Assembly (NCBI GenBank): GCA_963816425.1
Contig: CAWFKP010000005.1
Coordinates: 23,693-87,692 of the forward strand
Source: an uncultured Actinomycetes bacterium
GTDB taxonomy: Bacteria; Actinomycetota; UBA4738; HRBIN12
DNA length: 64,000 bases
Direction: 5' to 3'
Shown here: in pieces, positions 23,311-44,806 of the stretch
How the letters are laid out: each line of letters begins with the position of its first letter
Numbering within the stretch: the stretch's first letter is position 1
The notes under the pieces: model-generated
Seen by the model: only the letters and a program-made list of their open reading frames with translations
Databases searched by the model: none
Told to the model about the DNA's origin: nothing
Position numbers and translations under genes: made by a program

Positions 23311-23438
23311 GTGAGATCCCCCTCAGATCGCCGTCGGCTTGTCGAGGATCGGCCATCCCCTGGTTTGTTTCGGCGCGTGGAGCTTCACGCTTGAGTGCGT
23401 ACTTGCAGTGGTCCGCTGGCGGACGAGGAGTGCTACTC

Positions 23439-23483
23439 GGCGTATGGCGAGGGGGCGTATGGCGAAGGGGCGCATGGGCGGGG
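23439..23483. repeat. 15-bp tandem repeat x3 (GGCGTATGGCGAGGG / GGCGTATGGCGAAGG / GGCGCATGGGCGGGG) in a divergent intergenic region
   Basis: Read directly from the sequence at 23439-23483. Confidence 0.8.
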
Positions 23484-23859
23484 GGGTTGGAGGTTGCCCC
23501 AAGGAGATCGCTCCCTGGGCGTCCAATCGTGCCCAGCATGGTACTCCGCCGCGGGGCGAGACGACCTCCCACGGCGATCCGAGTGGCGGGGACTGGCCCC
23601 CACCGTGGGACCGCGTCACACAGGCGGACGCGGCGGGATGGGCTGGACCCTCCAGCGCCGCCATGGAGCGCCCCGGGGGAGCACGGTCGCATCCAGGATT
23701 GGACCTCGGCGATTGTTTCGGCTTGGGTCGTCGAGCGCGAGTGGACCCTCGTGGCTCTGGCTACCCTGCGCCAGAGTGCCCCTTGTAAACTCTTCCTCCA
23801 CCGCAACCGGATCGCGAGCGCGTGCCGCGGATGCGCGACGAGTAGGGGAAGGTCCAGCC

Positions 23860-26660: not shown

Positions 26661-28337
26661 CTACCAAGGCGGGTCCAAGATGCTTCGACGTGCACGCACC
26701 GCATCATGGTGGAAGGTGCCTTCGTCGTCGTATGACCAGCGCGGAAACTGGTTGTTCCACAACCGCATCAAGTGGGGTCGATCTTGATCGGGATGCTCCG
26801 CGACGAACTCCGCCAGTTCGAGGTCCCGTTCACTGATAGGTCGGAACCGACCAGCCGCGAGGCGATCTCGAACGAGACTGTAGTGCTTCATCACGTCGGA
26901 TGCGGTCACGGCTGGGTCGACTTCCAGCACGATCCGGGTCGTGCAGCTCAACGGGATGCCGCCGACGGTCTGTGATCGGATCGCATCAACCATCGGGGGG
27001 AGACCGGTGAGAACGAAGGTACTTGCCTGGCATCGTTGCCATCCGTAGACGTGTGTGAGCATCGAGCTCAAAGAACATAGGGTGTCCAGCACGCCCCCCT
27101 CGATGGTGGGTTGGCGTAGCGGCCACGGGTCGACTCCCAGGTATTCGAGGGTAACGGCGTGCCTCCTCTCACCGTCGCTCACCTCATCCTTCGCCGCCTG
27201 CTTCGACACCCAGTCAGTCACCTCGTCCAGCCTGAGCAACCGGTTCGTGAGTTCGCGCTCCCGGAAGGCCACGACGTCTGGTTCGGTCGCCGCCTCGCCC
27301 GCCACGAGGAGAGACATCACTTCCTGTCGATCGTGCCGAGCGTTGGGGACGAAGGACGTAGGAGCGGTCGGTCTCTGGCCCCGCTCGCCGTCTGCTCGAG
27401 CCTTCCTCGATCTGTGCGTCAGGAGGCGAAGTTGCCTGCCGAACACTTCGGCTCGAGCTCTGATCCGCGCCGTGGTTCGCGGCCTGTCCGTCGTCCGCTC
27501 GTATCCCAGCTGCGTGAGCAGGTCGCCGGCGAGCACATCGAAGAGGGCCACGTCCTTCTCGGGCATCTGACCCCTCCAGTCGCGCAATCCTTTGGTCGGA
27601 GGCAGGACGAGGTGGCGACGACTCCATGCGCTGGGAGACGTGATGGTCTCGGACCGTTCGAAGTAGCGAAGCATGTCCGGGTCGAAGGGAAGATCGATGA
27701 ATCCACAAAGCGACGTGACCGCGGCCTCGGGATCGTCCAAGAGTTCCTCATACCGGATCTCTTGATATCGGCTGGGGCCTAGTCGATGTCCGGCATCGCG
27801 CCCGGCCGTCACGTGCGCCTTCCACAACTGCGCCGCCCCGCCGATGCTTCGTGGACCGAAGTCGACGTCTAGCATCGAGAGCGCGACATCGCGTCCATCC
27901 CGGATGACATGGATGAATCTCGATTCCGGAAACAGGTCGGCAAGCAGCGAGACGTGTAGCACGTAGCTGGGCGTCTTATCGCCGTAGCGCGTCTTCCCGT
28001 TCCTGCGAGCGTAGAGTGCGAACACCGTCCGGATCGCTTCCGCGAGATCCGTCGGTGGATGGTGGTCGAACGCGATCTGTACATCGTCTTTCGACAGGCG
28101 CCAGCGGCGGAATCGTCTCTGCTCGAACAGATCGTTCAAGAAAAGACTCGCGGCGAAGCCATCGGATCCATCGTAGCGGGCACGCATACGCGCCAGGACC
28201 GATACGAAATTGGATTCATCCGGCACGGCCATGTCGGGATGAGCGTTAAAGATCGCACGGACCAGTGTGGTACCTGACCGGCCGGCTCCCACGAAGAATG
28301 GGAAGACGAATGGCTCATCATTCCGGCGATCAGGCAT
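26661..28337 (-). CDS. sulfotransferase domain (N-terminal ~300 aa) joined in frame to a ~240-aa domain of unknown function
   Basis: 558-aa ORF. It has FFVGAGRSGTTLVRAIF (5'-PSB type) and HVIRDGRDVALS (3'-PB type). After a Pro/Arg-rich linker, the C-terminal part (MSLLVAGEAATEPD...WNNQFPRWSYDDEGTFHHDAVRARRSILDPPW) matches nothing I recognise. Confidence 0.6.
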   Translation of the reverse strand: MPDRRNDEPFVFPFFVGAGRSGTTLVRAIFNAHPDMAVPDESNFVSVLARMRARYDGSDGFAASLFLNDLFEQRRFRRWRLSKDDVQIAFDHHPPTDLAEAIRTVFALYARRNGKTRYGDKTPSYVLHVSLLADLFPESRFIHVIRDGRDVALSMLDVDFGPRSIGGAAQLWKAHVTAGRDAGHRLGPSRYQEIRYEELLDDPEAAVTSLCGFIDLPFDPDMLRYFERSETITSPSAWSRRHLVLPPTKGLRDWRGQMPEKDVALFDVLAGDLLTQLGYERTTDRPRTTARIRARAEVFGRQLRLLTHRSRKARADGERGQRPTAPTSFVPNARHDRQEVMSLLVAGEAATEPDVVAFRERELTNRLLRLDEVTDWVSKQAAKDEVSDGERRHAVTLEYLGVDPWPLRQPTIEGGVLDTLCSLSSMLTHVYGWQRCQASTFVLTGLPPMVDAIRSQTVGGIPLSCTTRIVLEVDPAVTASDVMKHYSLVRDRLAAGRFRPISERDLELAEFVAEHPDQDRPHLMRLWNNQFPRWSYDDEGTFHHDAVRARRSILDPPW

Positions 28338-28719: not shown

Positions 28720-29949
28720 ATGGATGTACCTGGATCTTCGTTCGGGTTCGTGACGTCGCTGTTCATGCCGGCGGAGGCTGGGAAGTTGGGTGTCGTGATG
28801 CACCCGGCGGGCGACTGGACGTTCGCGCCGGAGCTCTTCCCCTCTGATATTGATGCCGCCGCATGGGGTCGTCCGCCGATCGGCTCCGACACGCCGCTGC
28901 CCCAGGCCGTGCGTCAAGCGATCCAGCGAGAGCTCGCGCTCCGGAGCTTCGCCAGCAAGGTTCCAAGCGGATACCGGCGCCGAGCCATCCATCGGTTGCC
29001 CCCGCCCACCTACGGTATCGGGGGAAGCAGGTCCGCGATCCGCGGCCTCGTATTGAGTGGCGCGATCGTCTCGGTCGAACGGGACACCGGGACGCCGATC
29101 GTCCTCGACGGCGTCGCGGAGGCGGCGAGCTTGGTTCGTACGGAGAGGCTGCGGCTCGGTGCAGGGGTGGCTGCCTCGCTGCTTGCCTGGCGCTCCGACG
29201 GCAGGAAGACGTTCGTCCGACTCGGCCCGGCGGGCGGCCGAGACGATCCGGCGCGCATCGCGCGTTGCCTCGACATGCTTCGCGCTTCCGGCGTGGATCA
29301 CGTCCCGAGGGTCCTGGCCCGCGGTCGCGTCGGTGCGACCTCATGGACTGTCGAATCGTTACTCCCGGGCCGAAGGCCCCGTGCACTCACGTCGGATCTC
29401 GTCGTATCGGTCGCTCGTAGTCTGGCACGGCTCCCGAGGCAGGAAGGTCCACCCGCTGCGCATCGCGACGATCTCGAGATCATCGCCGGCGCATTCCCGG
29501 ATCGTCGGCCGGTACTCGACGCGATCGGCCGCCGGATCGACCACGCCGTCGGGTCGATGCCCGGCGTGCTGCGCCACGGCGACCTCTGGGCGGGCAACCT
29601 CCTGATCCAGCATCGATCGCTCTGCGGCATCGTGGACTGGGATACGTGGCACCCATCGGGCGTCCCCGCTGCCGACCTGTTGCACATGATCGTCACCGAC
29701 CTGTCGATGAAGACTCGGCGGCCGCGAGGCACGCTATGGGCCGCCCGCCCATGGACGGCGCCGATGTTCAAAACGGTCCTTCTCAGGAACTGGCCCACGA
29801 GCGTCCCCGTCCCTGATGAACGCTCGTTCGAGGCGATCGCGCATGCGGGATGGGCTGCCCAGGTCGCCGCGAACCTGACACATTCCCCGGAGCTCTCGAG
29901 GAGGCAGCGCTGGATCTCGGGCAACATCGACCCGATCACGGGCCGATGA
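28720..29949 (+). CDS. aminoglycoside/choline-kinase-fold (APH-like) phosphotransferase
   Basis: 409-aa ORF preceded by GAAGGTGAGG. It has a Brenner-type catalytic loop (VLRHGDLWAGNLLI) and the metal-binding GIVDWDTW. Confidence 0.65.
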   Translation: MDVPGSSFGFVTSLFMPAEAGKLGVVMHPAGDWTFAPELFPSDIDAAAWGRPPIGSDTPLPQAVRQAIQRELALRSFASKVPSGYRRRAIHRLPPPTYGIGGSRSAIRGLVLSGAIVSVERDTGTPIVLDGVAEAASLVRTERLRLGAGVAASLLAWRSDGRKTFVRLGPAGGRDDPARIARCLDMLRASGVDHVPRVLARGRVGATSWTVESLLPGRRPRALTSDLVVSVARSLARLPRQEGPPAAHRDDLEIIAGAFPDRRPVLDAIGRRIDHAVGSMPGVLRHGDLWAGNLLIQHRSLCGIVDWDTWHPSGVPAADLLHMIVTDLSMKTRRPRGTLWAARPWTAPMFKTVLLRNWPTSVPVPDERSFEAIAHAGWAAQVAANLTHSPELSRRQRWISGNIDPITGR

Positions 29950-29959
29950 TCGCCAAGAT

Positions 29960-31240
29960 TCATGATGGTCCCGGCGACTCCCTGACGGAACGCGACCGGC
30001 GCCGACACACCTCCCAGATCACGCGCGTGACACTGCGGCGAAGATCTTGGAGATCGGCGGTTGCATCGACGACGATCGTGCCTGGGCGGCGCTCGACGAG
30101 CCCTAGGTATTGTCGCCTTCGGCGTGCGAGGACGTCGACGGGTTGTTCGTGCTTGCGCTGGACGAGCACCTCGGCCGGGGCGTCCAACACGATCATGAGA
30201 TCCGGCTCCGGAACGCTATGCCCGATCAGCCAACGAACCGCGCGTCGACCGGCCGGCGCATGTCGCGTCGCCGGAAGCGTGGCGTCAATCGGATAGCGAT
30301 CGAAGATCACCATCGACCCGCTCGCGCTGAGGGATCGGGCTCGCGCGTACCGGCCCCATTGTGCGACGAGCCGAGCCGGTAGTGACGGCGGCCTGTCGCC
30401 TCGCGTCGACGCGAGAGCGTCTCGGTGCATGCCCATATACAAGGTCTCGACGGCGAATGGAAAGGCGCCCCGGAGGGTGGCGGAGAGCGTGGTCTTCCCC
30501 GACCCGTCGGGCCCAACGAGCGCCACCGTGAGTCCGCGCTTGCCGAGCGGCGTCGCGCGGGTCCCGTTCAGCCACCGCGCGGCCGCATGCCTGGACGGCG
30601 AGATCTGGAAGCATGAACGAAGAAGCGGACGCGTCGCCTCGAGTGCTTCCCAATCACCGACGTGGACTCCGCGGAGCAACGTGTCGGCCGTGACGTGGGG
30701 GGATGCCACTCTGTCGACGATGGCGCCAAGCCCATCCGAGGCCACCGCGTGTTCAGCGAGGTCGCGGAGCCGTGCGCGGTGTGCGCGGCTTATCTCCGAC
30801 TTGTCGAGCAGACTATCCAAGAGCAGCATCCAGAACGCCTCGCCGTCCTCGAGAACGGATACATCGTCCGATCGCCGGCGCCGGAGACTCTCGGCACCAT
30901 TCGGCAGCTTCGGACATCGATACGGGCCCCATCGAAGATCGGTCACGACGTGGAGCGTGACCCATGCATCAGTTGTTGCGTCGTACCCGATGAGGGAACC
31001 GTGTGCGGGCTCGGAGCCTCTGATCGGTATGAATCCGTGACGGGCGAAGAGGCGGCGAACCCGTGGCGAGCCGGCGCTTGGGAGCAGCAGATAGATGGCG
31101 TTCGCCGCATCACCGACAGGCCGGTCCCCACCGAGCACGCACCACTCGACGCCCGCCGCATCGAGCGCGTCGAACACGCGTCGGAGTATCGAGGGAAGTG
31201 GCGGGGTCCACGGTGCACCGGTGGCGGGGGGAGCGGTCAT
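29960..31240 (-). CDS. two-domain protein: N-terminal domain of unknown function (weak nucleotidyltransferase-like look) + C-terminal thymidylate-kinase-like P-loop kinase
   Basis: The ATG at 31240 overlaps the upstream GT2 stop (ATGA) and is preceded by AGGAGG. It has Walker A (VALVGPDGSGKTTL), then IFDRYPIDA and LMIVLDAPAEV, as in dTMP-kinase-like NMP kinases. ORF codons upstream of 31240 overlap the GT2 gene. Confidence 0.55.
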   Translation of the reverse strand: MTAPPATGAPWTPPLPSILRRVFDALDAAGVEWCVLGGDRPVGDAANAIYLLLPSAGSPRVRRLFARHGFIPIRGSEPAHGSLIGYDATTDAWVTLHVVTDLRWGPYRCPKLPNGAESLRRRRSDDVSVLEDGEAFWMLLLDSLLDKSEISRAHRARLRDLAEHAVASDGLGAIVDRVASPHVTADTLLRGVHVGDWEALEATRPLLRSCFQISPSRHAAARWLNGTRATPLGKRGLTVALVGPDGSGKTTLSATLRGAFPFAVETLYMGMHRDALASTRGDRPPSLPARLVAQWGRYARARSLSASGSMVIFDRYPIDATLPATRHAPAGRRAVRWLIGHSVPEPDLMIVLDAPAEVLVQRKHEQPVDVLARRRRQYLGLVERRPGTIVVDATADLQDLRRSVTRVIWEVCRRRSRSVRESPGPS

Positions 31241-32257: not shown

Positions 32258-33424
32258 TCACTCCGATTCCGACTGTGTTCGGGATTGGCCGATCTGTCGC
32301 CGAGGATGCGATGAGACCTCATCATAGAGGCCGGCGAATGAGTCGGTCATCGCGCGTGCCGAGAAGCGTCGGTTCGCCGCATCCCGGGCGCGTGTTCCCG
32401 CGGCGACGAGGTCCTCATCGAGAGCAGCGCGGATCGCAGCGGCGAGCGTGGCCGGGCGGGCGGCAGGCACGAGCCATCCCGTGTCGCCGTCGACCACCAC
32501 CTCGGCGTTCCCGCCCACCGTCGTCGCGACCACGGCTCGACCCGCGGCCATCGCCTCGATGATCGCGGTCGGGAGGCCCTCGAATCTCGAGGGGAGGACG
32601 AAGAGAGACGCTCGAGCAAGCAGACTCGCGATATCCCCCCGCTCCCCGAGGAGGATCACGCTTCCTTCGAGCCCGGCTTCGCGGATCCGTTCCTCGAGGA
32701 CCCCCCGCGACGGTCCCTCTCCGGCGATCACGAAGCGAACGTCCTGGCCGAAGGGTCCACACGCCACTGCATCGATCAGATCGTCCAACCCCTTCTGGGG
32801 ATGAAGGCGAGCGACGGTCAGGCAGACGCGCGTATCGGAAGAGATCCCGATCGAGGAGAGATCCGCGGGCGTTGCGTGCGCGTACCGGCCCAGATCGACG
32901 CCGTCGTACACCAGGCGGACACCCGCTCGGGCGACGCCGAAAGCGGTGGAGACGTTGTCCGCCACCGCATCCGAGTTCGCGACGAACATCCGCACCGCTC
33001 GCGAGGTTGCCTTGGCCACCGTCATGGTCAGCCTCCCGACGACGGGACCAAGCCGAACAAGGCAATCCTGCGGATAGAGGTTGACCACGTTGTTGATCAC
33101 CGGCACGCCGGAGAACCGTCCGATCCGACCAAGCAGGTCGGCTCGGATGGTCCTGGTGTGTATCACGTCAGGCCGGATGCGTTGCAGGAGAGAGGCGAAC
33201 GCTCGGATCCCTCGAGGGTCGGTCATGGAGGTCATGCCCAGATTCACGATGCGGACGCCGGACCCCGACGTCTCGCGGATCAACGCGGAATCGGTAGGAC
33301 CGTGCGTGGCGACGAGGATCGGTTCGACGCCGGAGGTAGGCAGGTTCCGTGCCAGCGTGGCCATCACGCTGCCCGGCCCGCTCCCATCGAGGACGGAGAC
33401 GAGCAGGACGGCACGCACACTCAC
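32258..33424 (-). CDS. family 4 (GT-B, group 1) glycosyltransferase
   Basis: 388-aa ORF whose GTG start overlaps the upstream stop (GTGA). LPSRFEGLPTAIIEAMAAGRAVVAT is the E(x7)E motif region. Confidence 0.8.
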   Translation of the reverse strand: MSVRAVLLVSVLDGSGPGSVMATLARNLPTSGVEPILVATHGPTDSALIRETSGSGVRIVNLGMTSMTDPRGIRAFASLLQRIRPDVIHTRTIRADLLGRIGRFSGVPVINNVVNLYPQDCLVRLGPVVGRLTMTVAKATSRAVRMFVANSDAVADNVSTAFGVARAGVRLVYDGVDLGRYAHATPADLSSIGISSDTRVCLTVARLHPQKGLDDLIDAVACGPFGQDVRFVIAGEGPSRGVLEERIREAGLEGSVILLGERGDIASLLARASLFVLPSRFEGLPTAIIEAMAAGRAVVATTVGGNAEVVVDGDTGWLVPAARPATLAAAIRAALDEDLVAAGTRARDAANRRFSARAMTDSFAGLYDEVSSHPRRQIGQSRTQSESE

Positions 33425-34824
33425 GTCACAGCCACCGTGGGCCTGTTCGTCTCCGGAGTCACGGTGACAGAGCGGGGAGCTTTCCGGGAGCGATCGGGCA
33501 TCGTTTCCCAGCAGACATACGCCACCCCCGCGATCAACCAGAAGTAGAACTGGTACGCGCCCTTGCCAAGGTTGTTGCTCGCGACGCTCACCGCCGTGTA
33601 GCCGAGCGCCAAACCCAGGAACGCCCGGGGGAGGTCTCCCCGTGCGGCTCCGATACGCACGCCCATCCGATCGAGAGACAAGATGAGAAGGACGAACGCG
33701 ACGAACCCGATGATCCCCCCTTCGACCAATGCACGAAGGAAGTCATTGTGCGCAGCGACGTTGACGGACGCGAGCGTGGACCCCCATCCTCTCCCTAAGA
33801 TCGGCTGCGTCTTCCACAGTCCCAGATCCCGGTTCCATAACGCCAGCCTGCCCAGGAGTGAGTTCCCAGTGTTATTGCCCTGCATCGGATGGAGGAAGTC
33901 AGTTAGACGCACGAGAAGTCGGGGCACGGCCGCAACGACAACGAGGGCACTGGCGGCCGCGGCCGCGAGAACCCAACGGTGACGCCATCCGACCACAACG
34001 ACGAGGATCGCCATGGCACCCCACGCGTTCCGACTCAACGTGAGAGCCGTGGAGGCGAACGCTGCAAGGCCGATCACGTCCACGAGCAGGCGCATCCGGC
34101 CGGTCAACTCCCATCTGAGTCCCCAGGCCGCGCCGGTCACTGCGACGAGGTAGAAGCCGTACGTGTTCGGATGATCGAACGTGGACTCTATCCGCAAGCC
34201 GCCGTGGAGAGCATCAGTGTGCCCGATCGACTGGCTGAGTTGCCAGAAACCGATCAGGATCGGCACGCACGCGCTCGCGACGACCGCACCAAGGAACGCG
34301 CGGAGCACCTTTGGCTCGGGACGAGCCGTCACGATGACGAGGAACGCGGCGTACGGGGCAGCGAACTTCACGAGATCGCGGGCGCCAATTGGGGGCGCCG
34401 ATGAGTACAGAAGGCTTCCCGTCGCGATCGTCAACAGCAGCACGGCCGGCCAGAACGTCGGGGCCCTCCACACGGGCACTCCTGTTCGGATCCGATCCAG
34501 CAGCCACAGCAGCAAGCCCCCGAGGATCGCGATCGTCAAGAGGTCGGGCGGGCTCAGTCCCACCCCGAACGGACTGAGCAGGACATGTGACTGGAGACCC
34601 TCCAAGCTCGCACGGACGACGGCGAGGACGAGGAGAACCCGAACCGGATCGAGCGCCACCAGCAACATGGCCACGCCGCCGAACAGCGCGGCCATCGCCA
34701 ACGAGAGGTCCACCTTCCGCGTCAGCGAGGCCGTCACTGCGGCGGCGACGGCCGCGAACCCGAGGATCACGAGATCGAGGCCGAGGCGCTTGAACCGGCC
34801 TGTTGTGGCGGCTCTACTCGACAT
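33421..34824 (-). CDS. O-antigen ligase / Wzy-like polymerase family membrane protein
   Basis: 467-aa ORF with 10 or more hydrophobic helices. A loop with ...SRNAWGAMAILVV... and AHNDFLRALVEGGIIG is typical of the Wzy_C/O-antigen-ligase family. Its start overlaps the upstream gene by 11 nt. Confidence 0.7.
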   Translation of the reverse strand: MSSRAATTGRFKRLGLDLVILGFAAVAAAVTASLTRKVDLSLAMAALFGGVAMLLVALDPVRVLLVLAVVRASLEGLQSHVLLSPFGVGLSPPDLLTIAILGGLLLWLLDRIRTGVPVWRAPTFWPAVLLLTIATGSLLYSSAPPIGARDLVKFAAPYAAFLVIVTARPEPKVLRAFLGAVVASACVPILIGFWQLSQSIGHTDALHGGLRIESTFDHPNTYGFYLVAVTGAAWGLRWELTGRMRLLVDVIGLAAFASTALTLSRNAWGAMAILVVVVGWRHRWVLAAAAASALVVVAAVPRLLVRLTDFLHPMQGNNTGNSLLGRLALWNRDLGLWKTQPILGRGWGSTLASVNVAAHNDFLRALVEGGIIGFVAFVLLILSLDRMGVRIGAARGDLPRAFLGLALGYTAVSVASNNLGKGAYQFYFWLIAGVAYVCWETMPDRSRKAPRSVTVTPETNRPTVAVT

Positions 34825-36352
34825 ATCCCAGGGACCTCAGGTGCTCCAGCACGGCTGCTTCCTCTTCGTCGGAATAGGCGGATGACGACCGCACGGCTTC
34901 TGTCGGCGTACTCGTGTGGAGGCCGGCGAGGGGCGTCGAGGGGGAGATGAGACTTCTGCCGTCGAGCGTCGGGACCTCCAGTCCGAGGAGCGCGAGGATC
35001 GTGGGAGTGATGTCCGGGGCCTCCCCGTCGACCCTTTCGGTGGCACCGGCACCCCGGATGGCGACCACCCCTTCGGTTCGGTGCGTGCCCCACGCGACGT
35101 CTTCCCTGGAGACCCACGGCGTGGCCGCGTGGAGTCCATCGTGCAGTTCGACGGATCCGTCGACCATGTCACACAACAGGTCCGGCGCGCCCATCGCTAC
35201 CGATGATGCCTCTCCCCGTGAGTCGACCGCTCGGACGAGCGGCTCTCCCTCCGGGTCTCGCAGAGCGAGGAGGAGGTCGGTAACGTTGGTCCGCAGCTGT
35301 TCGTCGGACGGATCACCGAGCCACACCCCCGACTGGTAGCTCGGGCCGGTCCAGGCCCGGCGCACGGCACCGTCGCTCGGCCGGGCGGAAAGTCTCTTCT
35401 TGGCCCAGGTGCGTGCGCCAGAGGGCAGGAACGTCGATGCTCGAGAGCGTCCCAGGATCATCGTCGACCGGCGGACACGTCCGACTCGAGGAGCATCGAG
35501 GATGCCTTCGCGGGCGAGAACCAGATCGAAGAACACCTCTGCTCGAAGTGGCCCGAACCCGTGGTCGGAACAGGTCACCACGGCGGTCGACGGCGGAAGC
35601 GCCGCGAGGAGCCCGCCGATCGCCTCGTCGAGGGCGCGCAGGGGACCGGCAGCGGCTCGACGGAGCCGCCGCGACTTGCGGCTCTCGTACCGCTGGTCCC
35701 CTGGAACCAGGTCCTTCCACCATGGGTGCCCCAGGCGATCTGGCAAGACGAAGACGACCGCGAAGAGATCCCAGGGCTGCTCGCGCGCAAGGCGCGCCAC
35801 GGCGCGTCCGCGCGCCTCCGTCATGCGCTGGAGCAGCTCGAGGGCTCGAGCAGGCTCTCGAGCCCCCTCTCGGACCGGCACATCGACGACATAATCGCTC
35901 GGGATGAGCTCGTCGACGAGCCCCGGCGGTGACGTGAACGAAGCCCCCGGCGGCACCGGCATCCCCGACACCAGTACCCCGTCGATCGGAGTGGGCGGAT
36001 GTGTCATCGGAACGTTCACGACGATCGAGCGACCTCCGGATGCACCCACGAAGTCCCAGACCCGGGGCGTCAGCACGCGATCACCCGTCAACGGTCGACC
36101 CGCCCGATCCGTGAAGCCAAATATGCCGTGGCGATCCGGGCGCATCCCCGTCGTGATGCTCGTCCAGCCTGGTGCCGTGTACGGAGGCAGCGTGGACGCG
36201 AGCACACCGGTGGCGGATTCCCTCAGCAGGGAAAGCAGGTTCGGCATCGTCTCCTTCACGATCGGCGCCTCGAGGAAGGCGGGGCCGAGGCCGTCCAACC
36301 CGAGCAGGAGCACGCGACTGGAGGCGCGGGCACTCACGTCGCTACTCGACAT
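34814..36352 (-). CDS. cytoplasmic alkaline-phosphatase-superfamily protein, NPP (type I phosphodiesterase/nucleotide pyrophosphatase)-like, paralogue 1
   Basis: ATG at 36352. It has LLLGLDGLGP, YTAPGWTSITTGMRPDRHGIFGF, PDRLGHPWW, CSDHGFGP and GTHR. The C-terminal tail is EEEAAVLEHLRSLGYVE. There is no signal peptide. Confidence 0.7.
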   Translation of the reverse strand: MSSSDVSARASSRVLLLGLDGLGPAFLEAPIVKETMPNLLSLLRESATGVLASTLPPYTAPGWTSITTGMRPDRHGIFGFTDRAGRPLTGDRVLTPRVWDFVGASGGRSIVVNVPMTHPPTPIDGVLVSGMPVPPGASFTSPPGLVDELIPSDYVVDVPVREGAREPARALELLQRMTEARGRAVARLAREQPWDLFAVVFVLPDRLGHPWWKDLVPGDQRYESRKSRRLRRAAAGPLRALDEAIGGLLAALPPSTAVVTCSDHGFGPLRAEVFFDLVLAREGILDAPRVGRVRRSTMILGRSRASTFLPSGARTWAKKRLSARPSDGAVRRAWTGPSYQSGVWLGDPSDEQLRTNVTDLLLALRDPEGEPLVRAVDSRGEASSVAMGAPDLLCDMVDGSVELHDGLHAATPWVSREDVAWGTHRTEGVVAIRGAGATERVDGEAPDITPTILALLGLEVPTLDGRSLISPSTPLAGLHTSTPTEAVRSSSAYSDEEEAAVLEHLRSLGYVE

Positions 36353-38029
36353 ATCCGAGCCCCTCGAGGCGCTCTCGGATCTCGGCCTCCTCCTCCTCGG
36401 TGAAGCCACTGGCCTCTTCCTCGTCGATGATGCCGCTTCCCCCTTGTCGCGTCGGGACCGACGCAACGAGGTCGGATGAGAACGCGTCCGTCAGGATCTT
36501 GCCGTCCACGTCGGAGGGGATCGGCGCCTGTCGTAAGAAGAGCACCGTCGGCGCGATGTCCGCGATGCGGGCCCCTTCGATCCTGCCCGGACGGACCCCG
36601 GGTCCTCGGAGCCCGACGATGCCCAGTCGATCGTGCCCTCCGTTGAGAAGGTGGTCGAACGGATCATCCGGAAGGTGCTGCTTCGAGAGGCTGAACGAGC
36701 GACCGTCGGGATACCGCAGGTCGAGGCAACTCCCCTCGCCGGCCCACTCGATGACGAGATCAGGGGAGCGTTCAACGAACGGGCCCGAATACGCTTCCTC
36801 CCGGCGCAGAACGCGCTTGACGAGAGGCTGCCCGGTCGTGACGCACACAGCTGACGTCAGGGAGTCGATGATCTCCTGCCTGAGGGCCTCGTAGTCTTCC
36901 GGTGCGACGATCCCTTCCGGCTGTCGACCGCGGACGTTGAGCCAGATCTCAGGGCGCTTCCCATCGGTGTAGGCCTTCGTCCGCGACCAGTCCAGTCGAG
37001 CGAAGGACATCATCACCTCGACCTTGCGCCGGAGCGCCGGGAACCGACGTGCGAGTTTGTGCCTTGTCTCGGGCGCGAGTCGCTTGTCGAGCTCTCGATA
37101 GACGCGGGTTGCAGTCTTGTACAGGAACGAGCTCGACCCGCTCTGACCGACGTTCGTCCTGTACGTCAACAGGCCGAGATGCTCGAGCCAGCTCGGAAGC
37201 GCGCGAGCAAGACCGTCGTCGTACCGAGCTCCGTGATCGGAGACGAGCATGATCACCGCGTCCTTCCCCGCGGCGGCCATCAACCGTCCGAGCGCTCGGT
37301 CGAGGTGCTCATAGGTATCGCGGATCGCGTCCACCTGCCGCGGCGGATCCGTCGGGGGATGGATCCTGCATGTGCCTCCAGAAGAAGTGCTGAACGACGT
37401 CGGACTCGGTGAACACCACCATGAAGGCGTCCCATGCGTGCGTCGTCATGAGATGCTCTGCCACCCGCGCGCGCTTGTCGATCGATTGATGCAGGCGATC
37501 GAGACCCTGATCGACCTGGTCGGCGATCAGGAAACGTGCGAGTGCCGGGTGGATGAAGTACTCGCCACCGGCAGCCTTCACCACCTCGTGGCGGAGCTCG
37601 GGCGGATAGGTGAATCGAGGGTCGTTCGTTCCCGGGCTGTCGAGCCCGGCAGACGAAGACGCCGTTCACGGTCTCGGCGGGGTAGCTGACCGGGACGTTC
37701 ACGATCCCGACACGCTGTCCCTCCTCCGACAGGATCCGCCAGAACGCCTTCCCCTGTCGGAACGAGCCGTTGACGAATCGATACTCGTAACTCTCGGGTT
37801 TGTCCTCGGTGAACCAAAAGATCCCATGCTTGCCGGGGTTGAGCCCGGTCACCATCGTCGACCAGGCAGGGCCACTGTGCCGATTGGGTACCGATTCGAG
37901 CGATCCCCATGCGCCCTCGGAGATGAATGAGGCGATGTTCGGGAGTCGATCTTCCGCGACCCACTTCTCGACGAGAGCAGGTGTCGCGGCATCGAGTCCG
38001 ACGATCAGAACCTTCCTCGGCTCGGTCAT
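36342..38029 (-). CDS. NPP-like alkaline-phosphatase-superfamily protein, paralogue 2; frame broken twice (about 37646-37652 and the G5 run at 37354-37358)
   Basis: Three ORF pieces (37280..38218, 37309..37584, 36342..37334) are collinear with the paralogues: LIVGLDAATP, HSGPAWSTMVTGLNPGKHGIFWF, ESDVVQHFFW, VSDHGARY. The tail is EEEEAEIRERLEGLGYVE. The ATG at 38029 overlaps the upstream stop (ATGA). Confidence 0.65.
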
Positions 38030-39665
38030 AGGTAGCCCAGATCTTCGAGGTGAGCCGTCATCTGCTCCTCTTCCTCTCGCGTGTATGCCTCGTCGCTCCG
38101 TTGATCGACGGATTCCGCTCCGCGGCGGATGGGGTACTCCGAGACGAATCGATCTTCGAACGCGTCGGTCAGAACCCGGCCTTCCATCTGCTGCGGGATC
38201 TCGAGGCCGAGGGCCCATAGGAGCGTTGCGGGAACGTCCAGGATGGTCGCCCCCCCCAAGTCGTGCCCCTCGCGTATGCCCGGGCCGTTCATCACGAGGA
38301 TGCCGTCCGGCCTGTGGGTTGCGGCAGACCTTCCCGCTCTCGTTCCAGCACGAGACAGGGAGCGCCTCGCAGCCGAATGGCCGACCTCGTATCGTTCGTC
38401 GAGTTCCAACACGACATCGGGCGCCGAGTCCAAGTACTGGCCCGAGTAGATCTCCTCACGCCGATGCGCCGCCCGCACGACGTGGCTCCCGGTTTCGGGG
38501 TCAACCAGCTCGGCGGCCGCGGCGATGATGTCGCCGCGCACGGCCTCGAACTCAGACGGCGGAACGCTCCCCGAGGGCTCTCGGCCGGACACGTTCACGT
38601 TGAAGCCCGATATGTGGTGGTCGACGGTGACGGCGTACGCACGCGAGCTTTCCCACTCGATCGTTGCCGCATGATCTCGGATCCTTCCCGCCGAATCACG
38701 CACGCCTTTCGGTGCATGCCGCCACAACCAATACTTCTTCGGCGCGATGTTCGCTCCCCATTCGAGGGCGTTCGAGGCCAGCTTTCGAAGTGGCCGGTTT
38801 CCAACGGTGTTGAGCAGCCCCAGCTCGACCAACCACGCGTCCGGGTTGAACCTGAGGGCCGAGCGTCGGCCCGTCCCGTGGTCCGACAGGATCACGACGA
38901 GCGCAGGTTCGGGTACGGCATCGAGGATCGCGCCAAGTGACGCATCGACAAGACCGTAGAAATGCTCAACGAGCGTTCGCCGTCGACGCTTCGGGGTTCG
39001 TATCCAGGCGACTCGGGGTCCGAGTACCGCCAGAACTTGTGTGCGATCCAATCTGTGACGTTGTTGACGTAGCAGAAGAAGTCGAACTCGCGTTCCCGAA
39101 GCGTCTGGGTCAGCCACTCCGTGGAACGTTCGAGGTAGTGCTCGAAATTCTCGACCTGCGCATCGACGCCGGCCACCATGCTGCGCACAGGACTGAGCGT
39201 GAAGAGGGATGGCATCTCTTGCCCCACGTGATCTGGAGACGAGAAGTTCGTCCGAGGGTCGGGCGTTGGGAAGCCTGACACCATCAACCCGTTGACGGGC
39301 CACGGCGGATATGTCATCGGCACGCGGAACGCGATCACGTCCTTACCTCCGAGCGATGCATGATCGAAGATCGTGTTCCCCCGGTACGCCCAGGAGCCAA
39401 CGAGCTCGGATCCCAACACGCCGCCCGACACCGTTCGGAAGTTGAAGACCCCGTGTTGGCCTGGGTTCGTCCCGGTCATGAAGGAGACCCAGGCCGGCGC
39501 CGACAACGGCGGGACGGTGGAACGAAGCGTGGAGCGTGTCCCGGTTTCCATGAGTTTCGCGAGGGTCGGAAGCTTGCCGCTCTTCACGAGCGGATCGATG
39601 ACATCGAACGTGGCGCCATCGAGGCCGATACACACCACCTTGGCGAACGGCGCGGCCGTGGGCAT
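38026..39665 (-). CDS. NPP-like alkaline-phosphatase-superfamily protein, paralogue 3; frame broken once near 38965-38995
   Basis: ORFs 38892..39665 (VCIGLDGATF, LSAPAWVSFMTGTNPGQHGVFNF, VTDWIAHKFW) and 38026..39303 (LSDHGTGR ... EEEEQMTAHLEDLGYL) join at ...GYEPRSVDGER/TLVEHFYG. Confidence 0.65.
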
Positions 39666-39677
39666 CAGGAATTCGCC

Positions 39678-42284
39678 CTAGAGGTACCCGAGGGCGCTCA
39701 GCCGCTCTTCCACTTCGGCTGCTTCCTCGTCCGAGTAGCCCACCTGCTCGATCTCCGGCCCTCCTGTGTGAGTCGCGGAACGGACCACCGGTCGAGACGC
39801 GTGGGGTTCAGCCAATGCCTCGCCCAGCACGCGACCATCCACGTCGTCCGGTACCGGCACCTCGAGCAGATGCAGGATCGTCGGAGCCAGGTCCTGGAGG
39901 GCCGCCCCTTCGATCCGGGCGCCGGACGCGAATGACGGCCCTCGGAAGATGAGGACCCCCTGGGGCCGGTGCGCTCCCGAGAGACCGTGCATGAACCCCT
40001 TCGAGTACCGGCTCGAGACCGCGTGACCGAGCTTCCCGTCGTATCGCAATCCCGTCACCGGGCGGTCGTACTTCCAATCGATCTGCAGATCGGGAGCCTC
40101 GGCGGTGTGGGGGCCCGAGTAGATCTCGTCGGGCGTATGAACGGCTTCCACGACCCGTTCGCCCGTCTCCGGATCGACGAGCGAGGCGAGGACCTCTCGC
40201 AACTCGGTCACGAGCCCTCCGTACGCTTCTGGCGCCACGGTTCCGTTCAGATCACGCCCCTCGAGATTGACCCATATGCAGCTCCGGGTGTTGTCGCTGA
40301 ACGCCCGCGTATTCGCCCAGTCGATGCCGCCGAAACGGATCTGGAAACCGAACCGTCGGTACAGGCCGGGGAGCCGACGCTTCACGAATCCCTTCGCCCG
40401 CGGACCCAATCGTTTCGCGAGTTTGAACGCCCGCCACCGGCTGCTGGCGCCAGACGCATCCGCCCGATGGAGGTAGCCGAGCTGCTGCAGGATGCCACTG
40501 AGGTATTCCGCAGCGGGTTGGCGCCAGCCCATGCCGTGGTCAGACATCACGACCAGGTCACAGTCGGGACCGGCCGTTTCGAGGAGGCGAGCCAGGGTTT
40601 GATCCGCGTACCTGTAGACGTCGCGAAGCGGCTCTTGGCTTTCAGCTTCGTGATCCCAGACGTGATGGGCCACCTGGTCGGTCGCCTTGATCATGTACAT
40701 CGCCACGTCCCACGGCTCCGTCTCAAGGAGGCGCGTCATGGCGTTCACGCGCGACTCCTCGGCGGTGAGCGATGCCTCAACCACTCGCTCGACGCGTCCG
40801 GCGTTCGCGTGGTGAGCCACGGCGGCATGCAAGATGTAGGGACCACACTCGTCTTCGAGTCGGTCGATCAGTCCTTCTGGGTGACTGAACGCACTGCTCT
40901 TGATCGAGGGCGCGTCGAACCCGGCGAGCATCACGCCGTTCACCTGTTCAGCCGGATATGTGAGCGGCACGTTCACGACGACCACACGTCGGCCGGCATC
41001 CGAAAGGAGTCTCCAGATGCTGACCGCGTCTCGGTCCGCCGCCGTAACGAACTTCACCTCCGCGGGGCCGCCCTCGCCCTGTTCCGCGAACCAGAAGACG
41101 CCATGCTTTCCGGGGTTCTTGCCGGTCATGAAGGTCGTCCACGCTGGAGCCGTGTTCATATTCGGAACGGAGTCGAGGTAGCCCCACGCGCCTTCCCGGA
41201 GCACCTTCGAAAATGTGGGCAGCGTGCCGTCCTTCGCCCACGGCAGCATCAGGTCGAAGGTCGCGCCATCGAGTCCCAGGACGAGTAGACGAGCCATCGA
41301 TCCCTCATTCTCCCGCCGAGCCTGGTCGACCCCAGTGAGCTGACAACGTCTGGTGGTTCGTCCGTTTCCGTTGGACCGATGGCAGAGACTGACGACCCAT
41401 CGATCACTGCGCGCTCGCCGATATGATCGTCGCTCGATCAGGAGGATGAGGAAGACGCCGACCAGCAGGCCGGCGAGCACCGCGAGACCGATCGTCGCGA
41501 CCAACCCGACGGGGGCGGACCGCTTGCCGAGGGGCGGCGGCGAGATGACTGCTGAAGCGGCGATCCGCTGCTGGAGCGATTCATACGCCGTTTGCATCAT
41601 CCCGGGATAGGCGCTGCTCTTGCTCCTCGCAAGGTCAAGCGACACAGCATCCTGTCGGCGTTGGGTGCGCAGCTCCCCGAGCTTCGTCTGTAGTGCGAGG
41701 ACGCCGTCGGTTGTTCCCGACTGCCGAAGCCGAGCGATCTTCCGGCTCAGTGCTCTCTCTCTTTGCTGGAGACTGACGATGCGCGACGAGAGTGTCGACA
41801 TGGTGAGATCAAGCCGCGCCAAAGCCGGAGTGACGTTCGCAGCCAGGCTCCGCACCATCGTCTCGGCCAGGTCGTTCGAACGGCTGATTAGTGCTTGCGC
41901 CGCAACGGAAACGGCTCGCTGGGCGACTGTTGGCGAGCTCCCAAGCCCGGTCACAAGCCAGGTATCTTGGTCACGCAGCGGGACCGCAGTGATCGATCGC
42001 AGCCCAGCTGCTTGATCGCCGAGCGAGCCTCGGACGTCTTGTGCGAGGCTCGACGACGCGTACGCGGCGAGCTCCAGGGAGACCCTCGATACCCCATTGC
42101 CCCCCATCGAGATGGGGTCGGAGGCCGGGATCAGCACCTGGGCAGAGCTCTCGTATTGCGGCGGTACGGACAGAGCGAAGGGGAGGGCAGCGAGGACCGA
42201 GATCACCACGACGAGGGCCAGGACCAACCGACGCTTCCTCACGGTGCCCAGGATCCCCAGCCGACCCTCGTCTGCCACTGTCAT
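39678..42284 (-). CDS. Wzz/PCP-type polysaccharide co-polymerase half (TM1, coiled-coil loop, Pro-rich motif, TM2) in frame with NPP-like paralogue 4
   Basis: The ATG at 42284 overlaps the upstream GT2 stop (ATGA). PCP features are RKRRLVLALVVVISVLAALPF..PPQYESSAQVLI and SPPPLGKRSAPVGLVATIGLAVLAGLLVGVFLILLI. A 45-codon Arg-rich linker follows, then an internal ATG at 41297 (after GAGGGA) opens LVLGLDGATF, NTAPAWTTFMTGKNPGKHGVFWF, ATDQVAHHVW and MSDHGMGW, with the tail EEAAEVEERLSALGYL. Confidence 0.6.
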   Translation of the reverse strand: MTVADEGRLGILGTVRKRRLVLALVVVISVLAALPFALSVPPQYESSAQVLIPASDPISMGGNGVSRVSLELAAYASSSLAQDVRGSLGDQAAGLRSITAVPLRDQDTWLVTGLGSSPTVAQRAVSVAAQALISRSNDLAETMVRSLAANVTPALARLDLTMSTLSSRIVSLQQRERALSRKIARLRQSGTTDGVLALQTKLGELRTQRRQDAVSLDLARSKSSAYPGMMQTAYESLQQRIAASAVISPPPLGKRSAPVGLVATIGLAVLAGLLVGVFLILLIERRSYRRARSDRWVVSLCHRSNGNGRTTRRCQLTGVDQARRENEGSMARLLVLGLDGATFDLMLPWAKDGTLPTFSKVLREGAWGYLDSVPNMNTAPAWTTFMTGKNPGKHGVFWFAEQGEGGPAEVKFVTAADRDAVSIWRLLSDAGRRVVVVNVPLTYPAEQVNGVMLAGFDAPSIKSSAFSHPEGLIDRLEDECGPYILHAAVAHHANAGRVERVVEASLTAEESRVNAMTRLLETEPWDVAMYMIKATDQVAHHVWDHEAESQEPLRDVYRYADQTLARLLETAGPDCDLVVMSDHGMGWRQPAAEYLSGILQQLGYLHRADASGASSRWRAFKLAKRLGPRAKGFVKRRLPGLYRRFGFQIRFGGIDWANTRAFSDNTRSCIWVNLEGRDLNGTVAPEAYGGLVTELREVLASLVDPETGERVVEAVHTPDEIYSGPHTAEAPDLQIDWKYDRPVTGLRYDGKLGHAVSSRYSKGFMHGLSGAHRPQGVLIFRGPSFASGARIEGAALQDLAPTILHLLEVPVPDDVDGRVLGEALAEPHASRPVVRSATHTGGPEIEQVGYSDEEAAEVEERLSALGYL

Positions 42285-43240
42285 GCCCGAACCTCCATCC
42301 TTGACGCCTGCCATCTTCCTGCGGTCACGGAGGCCAGTTTGAGGCCGCCGAGAAGGACGCCCTTCGCTCGCTCTACGACCGACCCGCGATCCGTCGCGGA
42401 GACCCCCGCCGCTGCGGACATGCCCTCGTGAACCAGTGATACTCCAGCGTTCCGGAGTTCGTCAAAGATACCGAGACTCTCGTAGGTGGCACCTATCTCC
42501 CAATAGCGAGAAACGAGCTGCCGAATCCCCATCTGGTGCGCGTGATGAACGAGGGCTTCGGGCACGTACGCGATCCGGTGACCCCGGTCCAGGAGTCGCT
42601 TCGCCACGGCGACGTCTTCGAAGATCCGGATCTCGTTGGGGAAACGAACGGCTCTGAGAACGTCGGTCAGGAACGCAGACGTGACGTCGGAGAAGTGGAA
42701 GGTTCTTAAACCCAACTCTCCGATGCGCTCCTTCGTCTTGATCGCTGCCTCCTCGGGATAGAGATATGTGAACGTCGCGTCGCGCTCCATATCTGGTGAG
42801 GGCGACAGCTGTCTCCCGTACGCGGCGTCAGCGCGCCCATCGACGAGCGGGCGGACGAGAGACTCGAGCCATCCCTCCGTCGCGGGCTGGGCATCCTGAG
42901 AAAGGTACGCAACGATTGGCGTCGTGGTTGTGTCCAAAGCCCGGTTCCTCGTTCGACCGTGGCCGAAGGCGCCGGGCGGGATGGCTTCCCATTCATCCGC
43001 GACACCGCGGATAACGCGATTCCACTTCGCTCTCGGATCGGTGCTGGAATCGATCACCCGCAACACCACGCGCCCGACGTACCTTTGGGAGCGTACGAGA
43101 TCGACCGTTGTCGCCTCGTGGCGGCCTGGGTTGTGGATCAAGAGGATGACGGATGCATCGGGCCATGGCGCCCGCATTGGGCCCTGCGGATCACTCTCCG
43201 GTAGCAACGTAGGCTCACGCTCCTGTGGATGGAGGACCAT
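42281..43240 (-). CDS. family 2-type glycosyltransferase (rhamnosyltransferase-like GT-A)
   Basis: 319-aa ORF. It has ASVILLIHNPG..., LSQDAQP (DxD-like position), FSDVTSAF and HRIAYVPEALVHHAH, typical of WbbL-like GT2 enzymes. Confidence 0.6.
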   Translation of the reverse strand: MVLHPQEREPTLLPESDPQGPMRAPWPDASVILLIHNPGRHEATTVDLVRSQRYVGRVVLRVIDSSTDPRAKWNRVIRGVADEWEAIPPGAFGHGRTRNRALDTTTTPIVAYLSQDAQPATEGWLESLVRPLVDGRADAAYGRQLSPSPDMERDATFTYLYPEEAAIKTKERIGELGLRTFHFSDVTSAFLTDVLRAVRFPNEIRIFEDVAVAKRLLDRGHRIAYVPEALVHHAHQMGIRQLVSRYWEIGATYESLGIFDELRNAGVSLVHEGMSAAAGVSATDRGSVVERAKGVLLGGLKLASVTAGRWQASRMEVRA

Positions 43241-43454
43241 CCGTACACCCTACCGTGTAGCCCGAACGGGGTCACCTCAAACACCTAACGCAGTAGGCCT
43301 AAGCCTAGAGCCCTAGGTCTAACGGCGGTCGCGGCAAGCCCTACCACTGGTGAACCACTGCGAAGCTCGAGGCCCGGGCATTGTTCCCCCTGGGCAACGC
43401 GACCTTTCGGACAAGCTGCGGTTCTCGAAGGGCGTCCGACCGACTGAGGAAGAC

Positions 43455-44285
43455 CTAGGAGTAGAAGGTAACGCCTTTCAGCAAGGCCACGAGGAGGGAA
43501 GCCTTCAGCTTGCTTGCCGGCGTTCCAGCGTCTGTCCACCACCCCTTCAGAACGTCATACGTCATCGAGCCTTCTCCGATGTAGATGTTGTTCAGGTCAG
43601 TGACCTCGAGCTCTCCTCTCGCCGAAGGAGTCAGCGTCTCAGCGAAGCCGAACACGCGGTCATCGAAGAGGTAGCAGCCGCTCACGACGAAGTTCGACCT
43701 CGGGTGTTCCGGCTTCTCCTCGATGTGGACGATGCGATCATCGAGGACCTCCGCCACGCCGAAGCGCTGTGCGTCCTCATGGGACACCTCCTTGAGGAGG
43801 ATCTTCGCGCCGCCTCCCTGACCTTGGAAGGCCTCAACGTAGGGAGTGAGATCTTCTTGGAAGATGTTGTCACCGAGGATCGTAATGATGTCCGCGCCCT
43901 CCACGAAGCCCTTCGCCTTCAACAGCGCGTCGGCGATGCCTCGCTCACCTTGCTGATAGGCGTATCGCAGCCGCACGCCGAACGATCCACCATCACCAAG
44001 GAGATCCTTGAACTGCGCGATGTCATCACCCGTCACAACCACCACTTCTTCGATGCCGGCGCGGACGAGGGCACGGATGGGATAGAAGATCATCGGCTCG
44101 TCATAGACATCGAGTAGGTGCTTGTTGACGATCTTCGTCACTGGGTGGAATCGCGTCCCGAGGCCGCCAGCGAGAACGACCCCCTTCACGGGATCGGCCT
44201 TCTCGCCGGGCACGCAAACGATTGTTCGTTGAGGATCGGGATATTGCGGTGTCGCATCATCATCATGCGCCTCCCCTCGGGCCAC
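43455..44285 (-). CDS. sugar-1-phosphate nucleotidyltransferase (short RmlA/glucose-1-P thymidylyltransferase-like)
   Basis: It has KGVVLAGGLGTRFHPVTKIVNKHLL (G-x-G-T-R-x motif) and GIADALLKAKGF...ILGDNIF. The start is uncertain: ATG at 44285 or GTG at 44189. Confidence 0.75.
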   Translation of the reverse strand: MARGEAHDDDATPQYPDPQRTIVCVPGEKADPVKGVVLAGGLGTRFHPVTKIVNKHLLDVYDEPMIFYPIRALVRAGIEEVVVVTGDDIAQFKDLLGDGGSFGVRLRYAYQQGERGIADALLKAKGFVEGADIITILGDNIFQEDLTPYVEAFQGQGGGAKILLKEVSHEDAQRFGVAEVLDDRIVHIEEKPEHPRSNFVVSGCYLFDDRVFGFAETLTPSARGELEVTDLNNIYIGEGSMTYDVLKGWWTDAGTPASKLKASLLVALLKGVTFYS

Positions 44286-44730: not shown

Positions 44731-44806
44731 GCCGGAGTAGCTCAGTCGGCAGAGTGCCTCCATGGTAAGGAGGAGGTCAGGGGTTCGATTCCCCTCTCCG
44801 GCTCCA
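44731..44806 (+). tRNA. tRNA-Thr (anticodon GGT), CCA encoded
   Basis: I folded the cloverleaf by hand: acceptor GCCGGAG/CTCCGGC, D arm TAGCTCAGTCGGCAGAGT, anticodon stem CCTCC/GGAGG with loop ATGGTAA, T arm AGGGGTTCGATTCCCCT. Confidence 0.9.

Follow-up and report, generated by a model that had tools for sequence, protein, structure and literature searches.

Polysaccharide co-polymerases (PCPs) of the PCP-1 type, the Wzz proteins, have a layout of two transmembrane (TM) segments in roughly 325 aa, are kinase-less and need no cytoplasmic partner (PMC12004946). The partners of PCP-2 proteins may be encoded far from the PCP gene, as in the case of EcpK and EpsV (PMC12004946). Here we analyze a wzz-like PCP gene and its neighbor alkP1, a gene of the alkaline phosphatase (AlkP) superfamily, in a 64-kb stretch of contig CAWFKP010000005.1 from an uncultured actinobacterium (hereafter referred to as the window). 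A first-pass annotation had described the two as a single protein, or a tightly coupled pair, with the AlkP domain in the place where a bacterial tyrosine kinase (BY-kinase) normally sits. Our comparisons indicate that they are very probably two separate, adjacent genes of a Wzx/Wzy-dependent operon, which appear as one open reading frame (ORF) through two insertions private to this assembly.

As assembled, the minus strand carries one uninterrupted ORF of 878 aa from 42314 to 39678, of which the ATG at 42284, chosen as the start in the first-pass annotation, is codon 11. The motifs described there were all found, namely TM1, PPQYESSAQVLI, the Pro-rich motif with TM2, LVLGLDGATF, NTAPAW and SDHG, and the internal ATG at 41297 lies behind GAGGGA as described; the strand alone was missing from an otherwise accurate description. 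Its two domain assignments, a Wzz-type PCP and an AlkP domain resembling nucleotide pyrophosphatases/phosphodiesterases (NPPs), are correct, and the check that it proposed with hidden Markov models (HMMs) upholds the PCP half. Two Pfam models matched the ORF: Wzz (PF02706) matches aa 21-67 of the 878-aa ORF with 29.2 bits vs a cut-off of 25.5 (range 29.2-33.7 bits), and Phosphodiest (PF01663; type I phosphodiesterase/nucleotide pyrophosphatase) matches aa 343-745 with 110.9 bits. GNVR (PF13807), another model named there, was undetected in the PCP protein.

The continuity of the frame was examined in a three-way alignment of the window with two sibling assemblies, L005 (the ENA contig bearing protein P0121; 99.07% nucleotide identity over 13.5 kb) and L006 (a second contig; 97.9% nucleotide identity). 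In both siblings the PCP and AlkP genes are separate, with a Wzz of 325 aa, a 7-nt spacer and an AlkP of 539 aa. The elements of the junction in the window are as follows.

41406, minus strand: extra T (coding strand) just past TM2, a 1-nt insertion private to the window; L005, L006 and L001, a further related locus, do not have it.
41311, minus strand: extra A (coding strand), likewise a private 1-nt insertion that L005 and L006 lack.
41305..42284, minus strand: wzz-like PCP gene, whose true product is 325 aa and ends with TGA at 41307-41305; two spurious bases as assembled.
39678..41297, minus strand: alkP1, a stand-alone gene of 539 aa with its own ATG and a Shine-Dalgarno-like GAGGGA; homologs start there.

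The insertion at 41406 shifts the frame off the TGA, and that at 41311, 95 nt downstream, restores the register with the ATG at 41297. Removal of both bases yields a 325-aa PCP that shares 323 of its 325 residues with P0121 (2 substitutions). The corrected junction reads GGC GGG GAA TGA, then GGGATCG as a 7-nt spacer, then the ATG at 41297, such that the Shine-Dalgarno-like GAGGGA of alkP1 spans the wzz stop. The 32 shifted codons between the insertions happen to be free of stops; since the probability of this is about 0.48 at 67% GC, the open shifted frame is unsurprising. In the alignment, the unshifted frame gives the tail RIDGSS...EPPDVVSSLG...GG-stop, which is common to seven relatives, all ending at the same place. 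What had been called an Arg-rich linker is this cytoplasmic tail of the PCP, read out of frame. The idea that the T insertion alone is sufficient for the fusion was rejected, as frame arithmetic requires both insertions. As far as can be read from the aligned sequences, the 878-aa single ORF is the product of two stray 1-nt insertions private to this assembly, and the joined PCP-AlkP protein, which depends on them, is an artefact. The caveat attached to the first-pass annotation, which pointed to a separate ATG and ribosome-binding site, a linker that looks poorly coding and an assembly with many 1-nt indels, was well placed.

Similar lesions occur elsewhere. Private 1-nt indels, a different set in each, occur in the window, in L005 and in L006; wherever one falls in a gene, it disrupts an ORF that the other two assemblies keep whole. 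Relative to both siblings, the window has private 1-nt indels at 38977, 37652, 37353, 39675, 44563, 41406 and 41311. The indels of L006 cut its wzz to 178 aa (P0126) and split the genes for Wzy and a P-type ATPase, and an indel of L005 splits alkP3 at a place different from that in the window. The alignment of the window with L005 has 112 mismatches and 14 gap positions; judged on the aligned bases, conserved coding DNA should show far fewer indels for that number of substitutions. The pattern points to long-read consensus errors as the source of the extra bases. The contig names (contig_N) and the presence among the relatives of L010, a Nanopore metagenome-assembled genome (MAG) of the Microflora Danica project (PMC12313526), suggest that these are Nanopore assemblies. 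Given the private indels, ORF-based readings anywhere in the window warrant caution.

A database search for the fused architecture, as proposed in the first-pass annotation, returned 0 fused homologs in either of two protein searches. With the 878-aa ORF as the query against 5.8 billion protein clusters, the best 120 matches were stand-alone PF01663 proteins of 536-591 aa that cover only the C-terminal 57-64% of the query and start at the Met of the ATG at 41297; the closest were 94%, 84% and 71% identical. The N-terminal 302 aa, used as a separate query, gave eight matches of 178-330 aa, all of them Wzz-only or without a Pfam domain, among them P0121 (325 aa), which is 100% identical to this query in the best local alignment. 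The second search, with a PCP profile against 1.84 billion representatives, returned 50 relatives, none of which carries PF01663; 33 of them have E <= 1e-10 and a maximum length of 489 aa, nearly all being 290-360 aa long. Among the long, weak matches, five are classical proteins of Wzz plus BY-kinase, and a sixth, P0172, is unrelated. A scan of GTDB genomes with the PCP profile gave a single locus, L010.

The order of the two genes is conserved. PCP-then-AlkP adjacency was found in 8 related loci, representing 7 lineages besides that of the window, and the downstream gene carries PF01663 in 8/8. Six of these lineages, with PCP identities from 76% down to about 28%, have two genes each at the following spacings.

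L001: 6-nt gap, stop codon TAG.
L002: 3-nt gap.
L003/L004: 4-nt overlap.
L010 (actinobacterial MAG from GTDB): 4-nt overlap.
L011 (PCP about 28% identical): 0-nt gap.
P0129 contig: 4-nt overlap.

The wzz-like gene and alkP1 would probably be translationally coupled. The first-pass annotation had named a stop after TM2, together with a lack of conserved adjacency, as evidence that would speak against its proposal: the stop is seen once the sequence is corrected, and the adjacency is nonetheless conserved. Its alternative of tight coupling is accordingly upheld as a statement of gene order and unsupported as a functional replacement of a kinase.

The corrected PCP has the following parts.

42171..42230, minus strand: TM1, aa 19-38 of 325; a helix at 19-38 in the AlphaFold2 (AF2) model, within the N-terminal Pfam Wzz match.
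41436..41510, minus strand: TM2, aa about 259-283, preceded by an SPPPLG motif; within the AF2 helix at 259-296.
41308..41435, minus strand: cytoplasmic tail of about 40 aa, moderately conserved in the alignment and disordered in the AF2 model.

The PF02706 match is limited to the N-terminal 47 residues of the PCP, and a weak NCBIfam match, to the C-terminal half of the XrtA chain-length determinant, covers aa 147-284. The AF2 model (pLDDT 85.6, falling below 60 past residue 297) comprises a helix at 19-38, strands and helices at 44-115, helices at 118-189 and 195-243, and a helix at 259-296; in layout, TM1 is followed by an alpha/beta base, a helical hairpin (70 + 50 residues), a short strand, TM2 and the disordered tail. 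The best 50 matches of this model to PDB structures in a Foldseek search were all PCPs (50/50), full-length WzzB (6rbg) coming first, followed by Wzc, WzzE and KpsE. These results support the predicted PCP fold of the N-terminal half, in which TM helices flank an extracytoplasmic alpha/beta base and helical hairpin.

We then addressed the kinase with a BY-kinase HMM built from PCP-2 relatives, which scored a held-out BY-kinase domain at 218.8 bits as a positive control. No BY-kinase domain was detected in the six frames of the window (best E 0.37), which agrees with the earlier statement that the island encodes none, and none was detected in the related loci within about 10 kb around; an adjacent BY-kinase in homologous loci, which had been named as contrary evidence, was thus not seen in those scanned. 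One candidate for a hidden BY-kinase, the dTMP-kinase-like P-loop protein at 29960-31240, was discarded: its matches are to thymidylate-kinase, AAA_33 and AAA_28 models, not to MinD/ParA-type models, it is without a Tyr cluster and the BY-kinase HMM does not match it.

These results bear on the class of the PCP. PCP-2a proteins are defined by a fused C-terminal BY-kinase domain, and the corrected PCP ends about 40 aa past TM2. PCP-2b proteins are defined by an adjacent stand-alone BY-kinase, and the downstream gene is of the PF01663 type in all of the related loci. A PCP-AlkP fusion class would be defined by a single polypeptide conserved in relatives, and no relative has one. With respect to the traits of PCP-1, the protein contains no kinase domain and the BY-kinase HMM is blank within the 64 kb and the related loci, the close relatives of 290-360 aa are all kinase-less, and the cluster encodes Wzy and two Wzx proteins, in a host of an actinobacterial MAG lineage. 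The missing BY-kinase is not anomalous, because PCP-1 (Wzz) proteins share the size and layout without a kinase. The premise that a kinase normally sits after TM2 applies to PCP-2 only (PMC12004946).

AlkP1 is the first of four tandem paralogs, the other three being as follows.

38026..39665, minus strand: alkP2 (Pfam); the private 1-nt deletion at 38977 splits the gene, and tblastn moves from frame -3 to -2 against the intact orthologs of L003 and L001.
36342..38029, minus strand: alkP3 (Pfam); split by private insertions at 37652 and 37353, with tblastn frames -1, -2 and -3 against the intact ortholog of L003.
34814..36352, minus strand: alkP4, about 512 aa (Pfam PF01663); ortholog of genes of 497-512 aa in L003, L005 and L006.

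The four genes (34814-41297, minus strand) are about 30-37% identical to one another, and their order is kept in L003/L004, L005/L006 and L010. The AF2 model of AlkP1 (pLDDT 87.9) has its best PDB matches in Xac NPP, SPAP, the ENPPs and phosphonoacetate hydrolase (PhnA), with a Foldseek E of about 3e-15, a template modeling score of 0.68 normalized to Xac NPP and a sequence identity of about 14% with solved structures. In 38/38 sequences, all four paralogs included, the metal ligands D10, D207, H211, D253, H254 and H443 are kept, as is the nucleophile S/T49. By its sequence and model, AlkP1 is an NPP-like enzyme of the AlkP superfamily with a complete binuclear-metal catalytic site and a putative phosphoesterase activity. 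It begins with the first beta-strand and is therefore without a signal peptide; the protein is presumably cytoplasmic. Beyond the AlkP core it has a C-terminal beta-rich domain, a helical insert (about 55 aa) that is strongly basic, with a net charge of +3 to +14 (the protein is otherwise acidic, mean about -10), and a C-terminal tail, Y-S/T-x-EE...RLxxLGY(L/V), that is conserved across phyla; all four paralogs carry the insert and the tail. No NCBIfam family matched AlkP1 above its cut-off (the best was PhnA, 23 bits vs a cut-off of 407), and searches of NCBIfam and PDB sequences yielded nothing more specific than the superfamily level.

The family extends beyond this operon. The four distant AlkP homologs examined (36-41% identity) come from Anaerolineae, the planctomycete Maioricimonas and two unclassified metagenome contigs, at the following positions.

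L007, 10001-11695.
L009, 10001-11689.
L012, 9001-10692.
L013, 7289-10698, a tandem pair.

All (4/4) lie in glycan clusters with no adjacent Wzz, and their neighbors encode GT2 and GT4 glycosyltransferases, Wzx, Wzy_C, pyruvyl transferase and Poly_export proteins. Because the AlkP family occurs in other phyla without an adjacent PCP, the conserved wzz-alkP1 adjacency is best read as operon order and not as a new class of PCP partner. The claim that the PCP is wired to a phosphoesterase has no evidence beyond this order. We found no literature linking PCPs with AlkP-superfamily partners; a search for 'COG3379' gave one mention, in an unrelated paper, and a search for nucleotide pyrophosphatase with sulfotransferase and exopolysaccharide clusters gave general papers on sulfated exopolysaccharides only.

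The two genes belong to a polysaccharide island of about 19.4-44.3 kb, with a GC content of 62-67% vs 68-70% in the flanks, that ends beside a tRNA-Thr(GGT) gene (44731-44806). Its low GC and tRNA edge are compatible with horizontal acquisition or with the usual atypical composition of glycan loci. The gene order GT2, wzz, alkP1-4, wzy, GT4, GT2, P-loop protein is conserved in relatives. A sugar nucleotidyltransferase is also encoded in the island, together with the following.

42281..43240, minus strand: GT2 glycosyltransferase (Pfam) directly upstream of wzz; its stop overlaps the PCP start by 4 nt; kept in L002, L003, L005, L010 and L011.
33421..34824, minus strand: Wzy-type polymerase (Wzy_C; Pfam PF04932); position kept in L003, L005, L006 and L010.
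29960-31240, minus strand: 426-aa protein with a C-terminal dTMP-kinase-like P-loop domain (Walker A GPDGSGKT), the candidate rejected above; kept beside GT2 in L003.
28720-29949, plus strand: APH/protein-kinase-like ORF, not a BY-kinase.
23395-24984, plus strand: ORF with a weak match to HprK-related kinase B, not a BY-kinase.
19424-20488, plus strand, and 26661-28337, minus strand: sulfotransferases (PF13469/PF00685).
20498-22024 and 25082-26650: two Wzx flippases.

The two sulfotransferases and two Wzx proteins suggest a sulfated polysaccharide in an actinobacterium. The Wzy_C and GT4 genes (32258-34824, minus strand) are separate and overlap by 4 nt in the window, L005 and L006, the Wzy gene being split by an indel in L006; in L010 they are in different reading frames. 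In L003/L004 they form one 864-aa ORF (L003, 16446-19040), which may be a genuine fusion or a frameshift artefact. Upstream of the GT2-wzz pair, L003 (7438-8208) and L011 (1452-2183) have a gene for an initiating phosphoglycosyl transferase (Bac_transf), and an NTP_transferase gene is at this position in the window (stretch compared, GT2 included: 42281-44285), L005 and L006. No Bac_transf homolog was found anywhere in the window by tblastn at a cut-off of at least 38% identity.

With two adjacent genes as the preferred reading, the expected functional partner of the PCP is Wzy: the PCP would act as a kinase-less, PCP-1-like Wzz that modulates Wzy, encoded four genes downstream. The AlkP paralogs, rather than being partners of the PCP, would be accessory enzymes that act while the glycan is assembled in the cytoplasm; their reaction would be the cleavage or transfer of a group held by a phosphodiester or pyrophosphate linkage, on an intermediate that is nucleotide-activated or lipid-linked. 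Their substrates are possibly a nucleotide-activated donor, 3'-phosphoadenosine 5'-phosphosulfate or its desulfated product (PAPS/PAP), or a repeat unit linked to undecaprenyl pyrophosphate, and the basic insert may keep them associated with the membrane. Several points weigh against this overall account. The three assemblies are 1-2% apart in substitutions and hence not the same clone. The proposed functions, a Wzz-like role and AlkP action on cytoplasmic intermediates, draw on fold, context and conserved residues, and no characterized member of the AlkP family was found in the libraries and literature searched.

One rival reading is a fusion that is genuine in this strain, where two mutations would have made a PCP-AlkP protein with a new Arg-rich linker and placed the AlkP domain under the PCP oligomer. 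The frame is indeed open in the sequence as given, and the window also has real substitutions relative to L005 and L006, so that some of its private differences are biological. Such a fusion needs two independent 1-nt insertions 95 nt apart, however, with a linker in a frame that no relative uses; neighboring conserved genes in the window are broken by similar private indels, and neither large protein search returned a fused homolog. We regard it as extremely unlikely. It is also conceivable that the genes are separate and the proteins nonetheless joined in function, the 40-aa tail docking one or more AlkP proteins as a cytoplasmic scaffold that replaces a BY-kinase or BY-pseudokinase. In favor of this, a spacing of 0-7 nt or an overlap is kept in the population of the window and in related loci of seven lineages, even where PCP identity is as low as about 28%; the tail is moderately conserved, and its length is similar to that of the tails of 27-29 residues known to bind BY-(pseudo)kinases (PMC12004946); a basic insert and the C-terminal ...RLxxLGY tail are conserved in the AlkP proteins; and the window and related loci are free of a BY-kinase. 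However, other phyla have members of the AlkP family in glycan clusters with no PCP next to them, the catalytic residues are complete in all four paralogs, which argues for enzymes over scaffolds, PCP-1 proteins require no cytoplasmic partner (PMC12004946), and adjacency in an operon is weak evidence for physical contact. A docking role of this kind is very unlikely.

The PCP could instead be of the PCP-2b type, with a BY-kinase or BY-pseudokinase partner encoded outside the 64-kb window. The actinobacterial host fits this, as PCP-2b types predominate in Gram-positives, and so do the distantly encoded partners known from EcpK/EpsV (PMC12004946), the finding that the only long, weak relatives of the PCP are the Wzz plus BY-kinase proteins, and the conserved cytoplasmic tail, which could be a kinase-docking peptide. 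The BY-kinase scan, blank in the window and within about 10 kb in the related loci, speaks against it, as do the length of the protein and its extracytoplasmic loop of about 220 aa, which match WzzB, the best structural match. We consider a distant partner unlikely, and prefer the reading of two adjacent genes with a PCP-1-like Wzz. As a long shot beyond that reading, the PCP tail may recruit membrane-proximal AlkP paralogs and couple phosphoester processing of the lipid-linked repeat unit to polymerization or, more modestly, AlkP proteins of the COG3379 type may form a widespread class, so far unrecognized, of enzymes that modify glycans in the cytoplasm and are encoded in Wzx/Wzy clusters across several phyla. 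A mechanistic tie of the AlkP family to the co-polymerase is unsupported, as we found nothing that points to one.

The main value of this case is as a warning: a domain architecture that looked strikingly new was gone once the uncorrected long-read assembly had been compared with its siblings. The locus itself is an ordinary Wzx/Wzy polysaccharide cluster of an uncultured actinobacterium, and its product may be a sulfated polymer. Of lasting interest is the glycan-cluster-associated AlkP family, with its four conserved tandem paralogs and its recurrence in several phyla; its substrate, once worked out, could add a modification or processing step to polysaccharide biosynthesis.

Compared with known systems, the PCP resembles the PCP-1 proteins WzzB and WzzE in its length of about 325 aa, two TM segments, alpha/beta base and hairpin, Pro-rich motif, lack of a kinase and setting in a Wzx/Wzy cluster. 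It differs from them in being only about 12-16% identical to solved PCPs, with PF02706 matching over 47 residues only, in having a conserved cytoplasmic tail of about 40 aa, and in its actinobacterial host, in contrast to the O-antigen and enterobacterial common antigen systems of Gram-negatives. With the PCP-2b/BY-kinase pairs CapA/CapB and CpsC/CpsD and the PCP-2/BY-pseudokinase pairs EpsV/EcpK and HfsA/HfsB, it shares a two-TM PCP, a short C-terminal tail, a tightly spaced downstream gene and a Gram-positive-type host, whereas its downstream gene encodes an AlkP-fold phosphoesterase and not a P-loop BY-(pseudo)kinase, with no BY-kinase in the window or related loci. At the level of the cluster, the sulfotransferase content of the island is reminiscent of the Actinoplanes wps-1 cluster, which encodes sulfotransferases, a kinase-like protein and Wzz and has no AlkP (PMC13390465). 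AlkP1 shares the AlkP core, the invariant Asp/His ligands and the Ser/Thr nucleophile with the branch of NPPs, phosphonoacetate hydrolase and PafA/SPAP (PF01663; COG3379, 'predicted AlkP superfamily phosphohydrolase/phosphomutase'), and it is set apart from that branch by an identity of about 14%, the lack of a signal peptide, the additional basic insert and beta-rich domain, and the acidic ...RLxxLGY tail.

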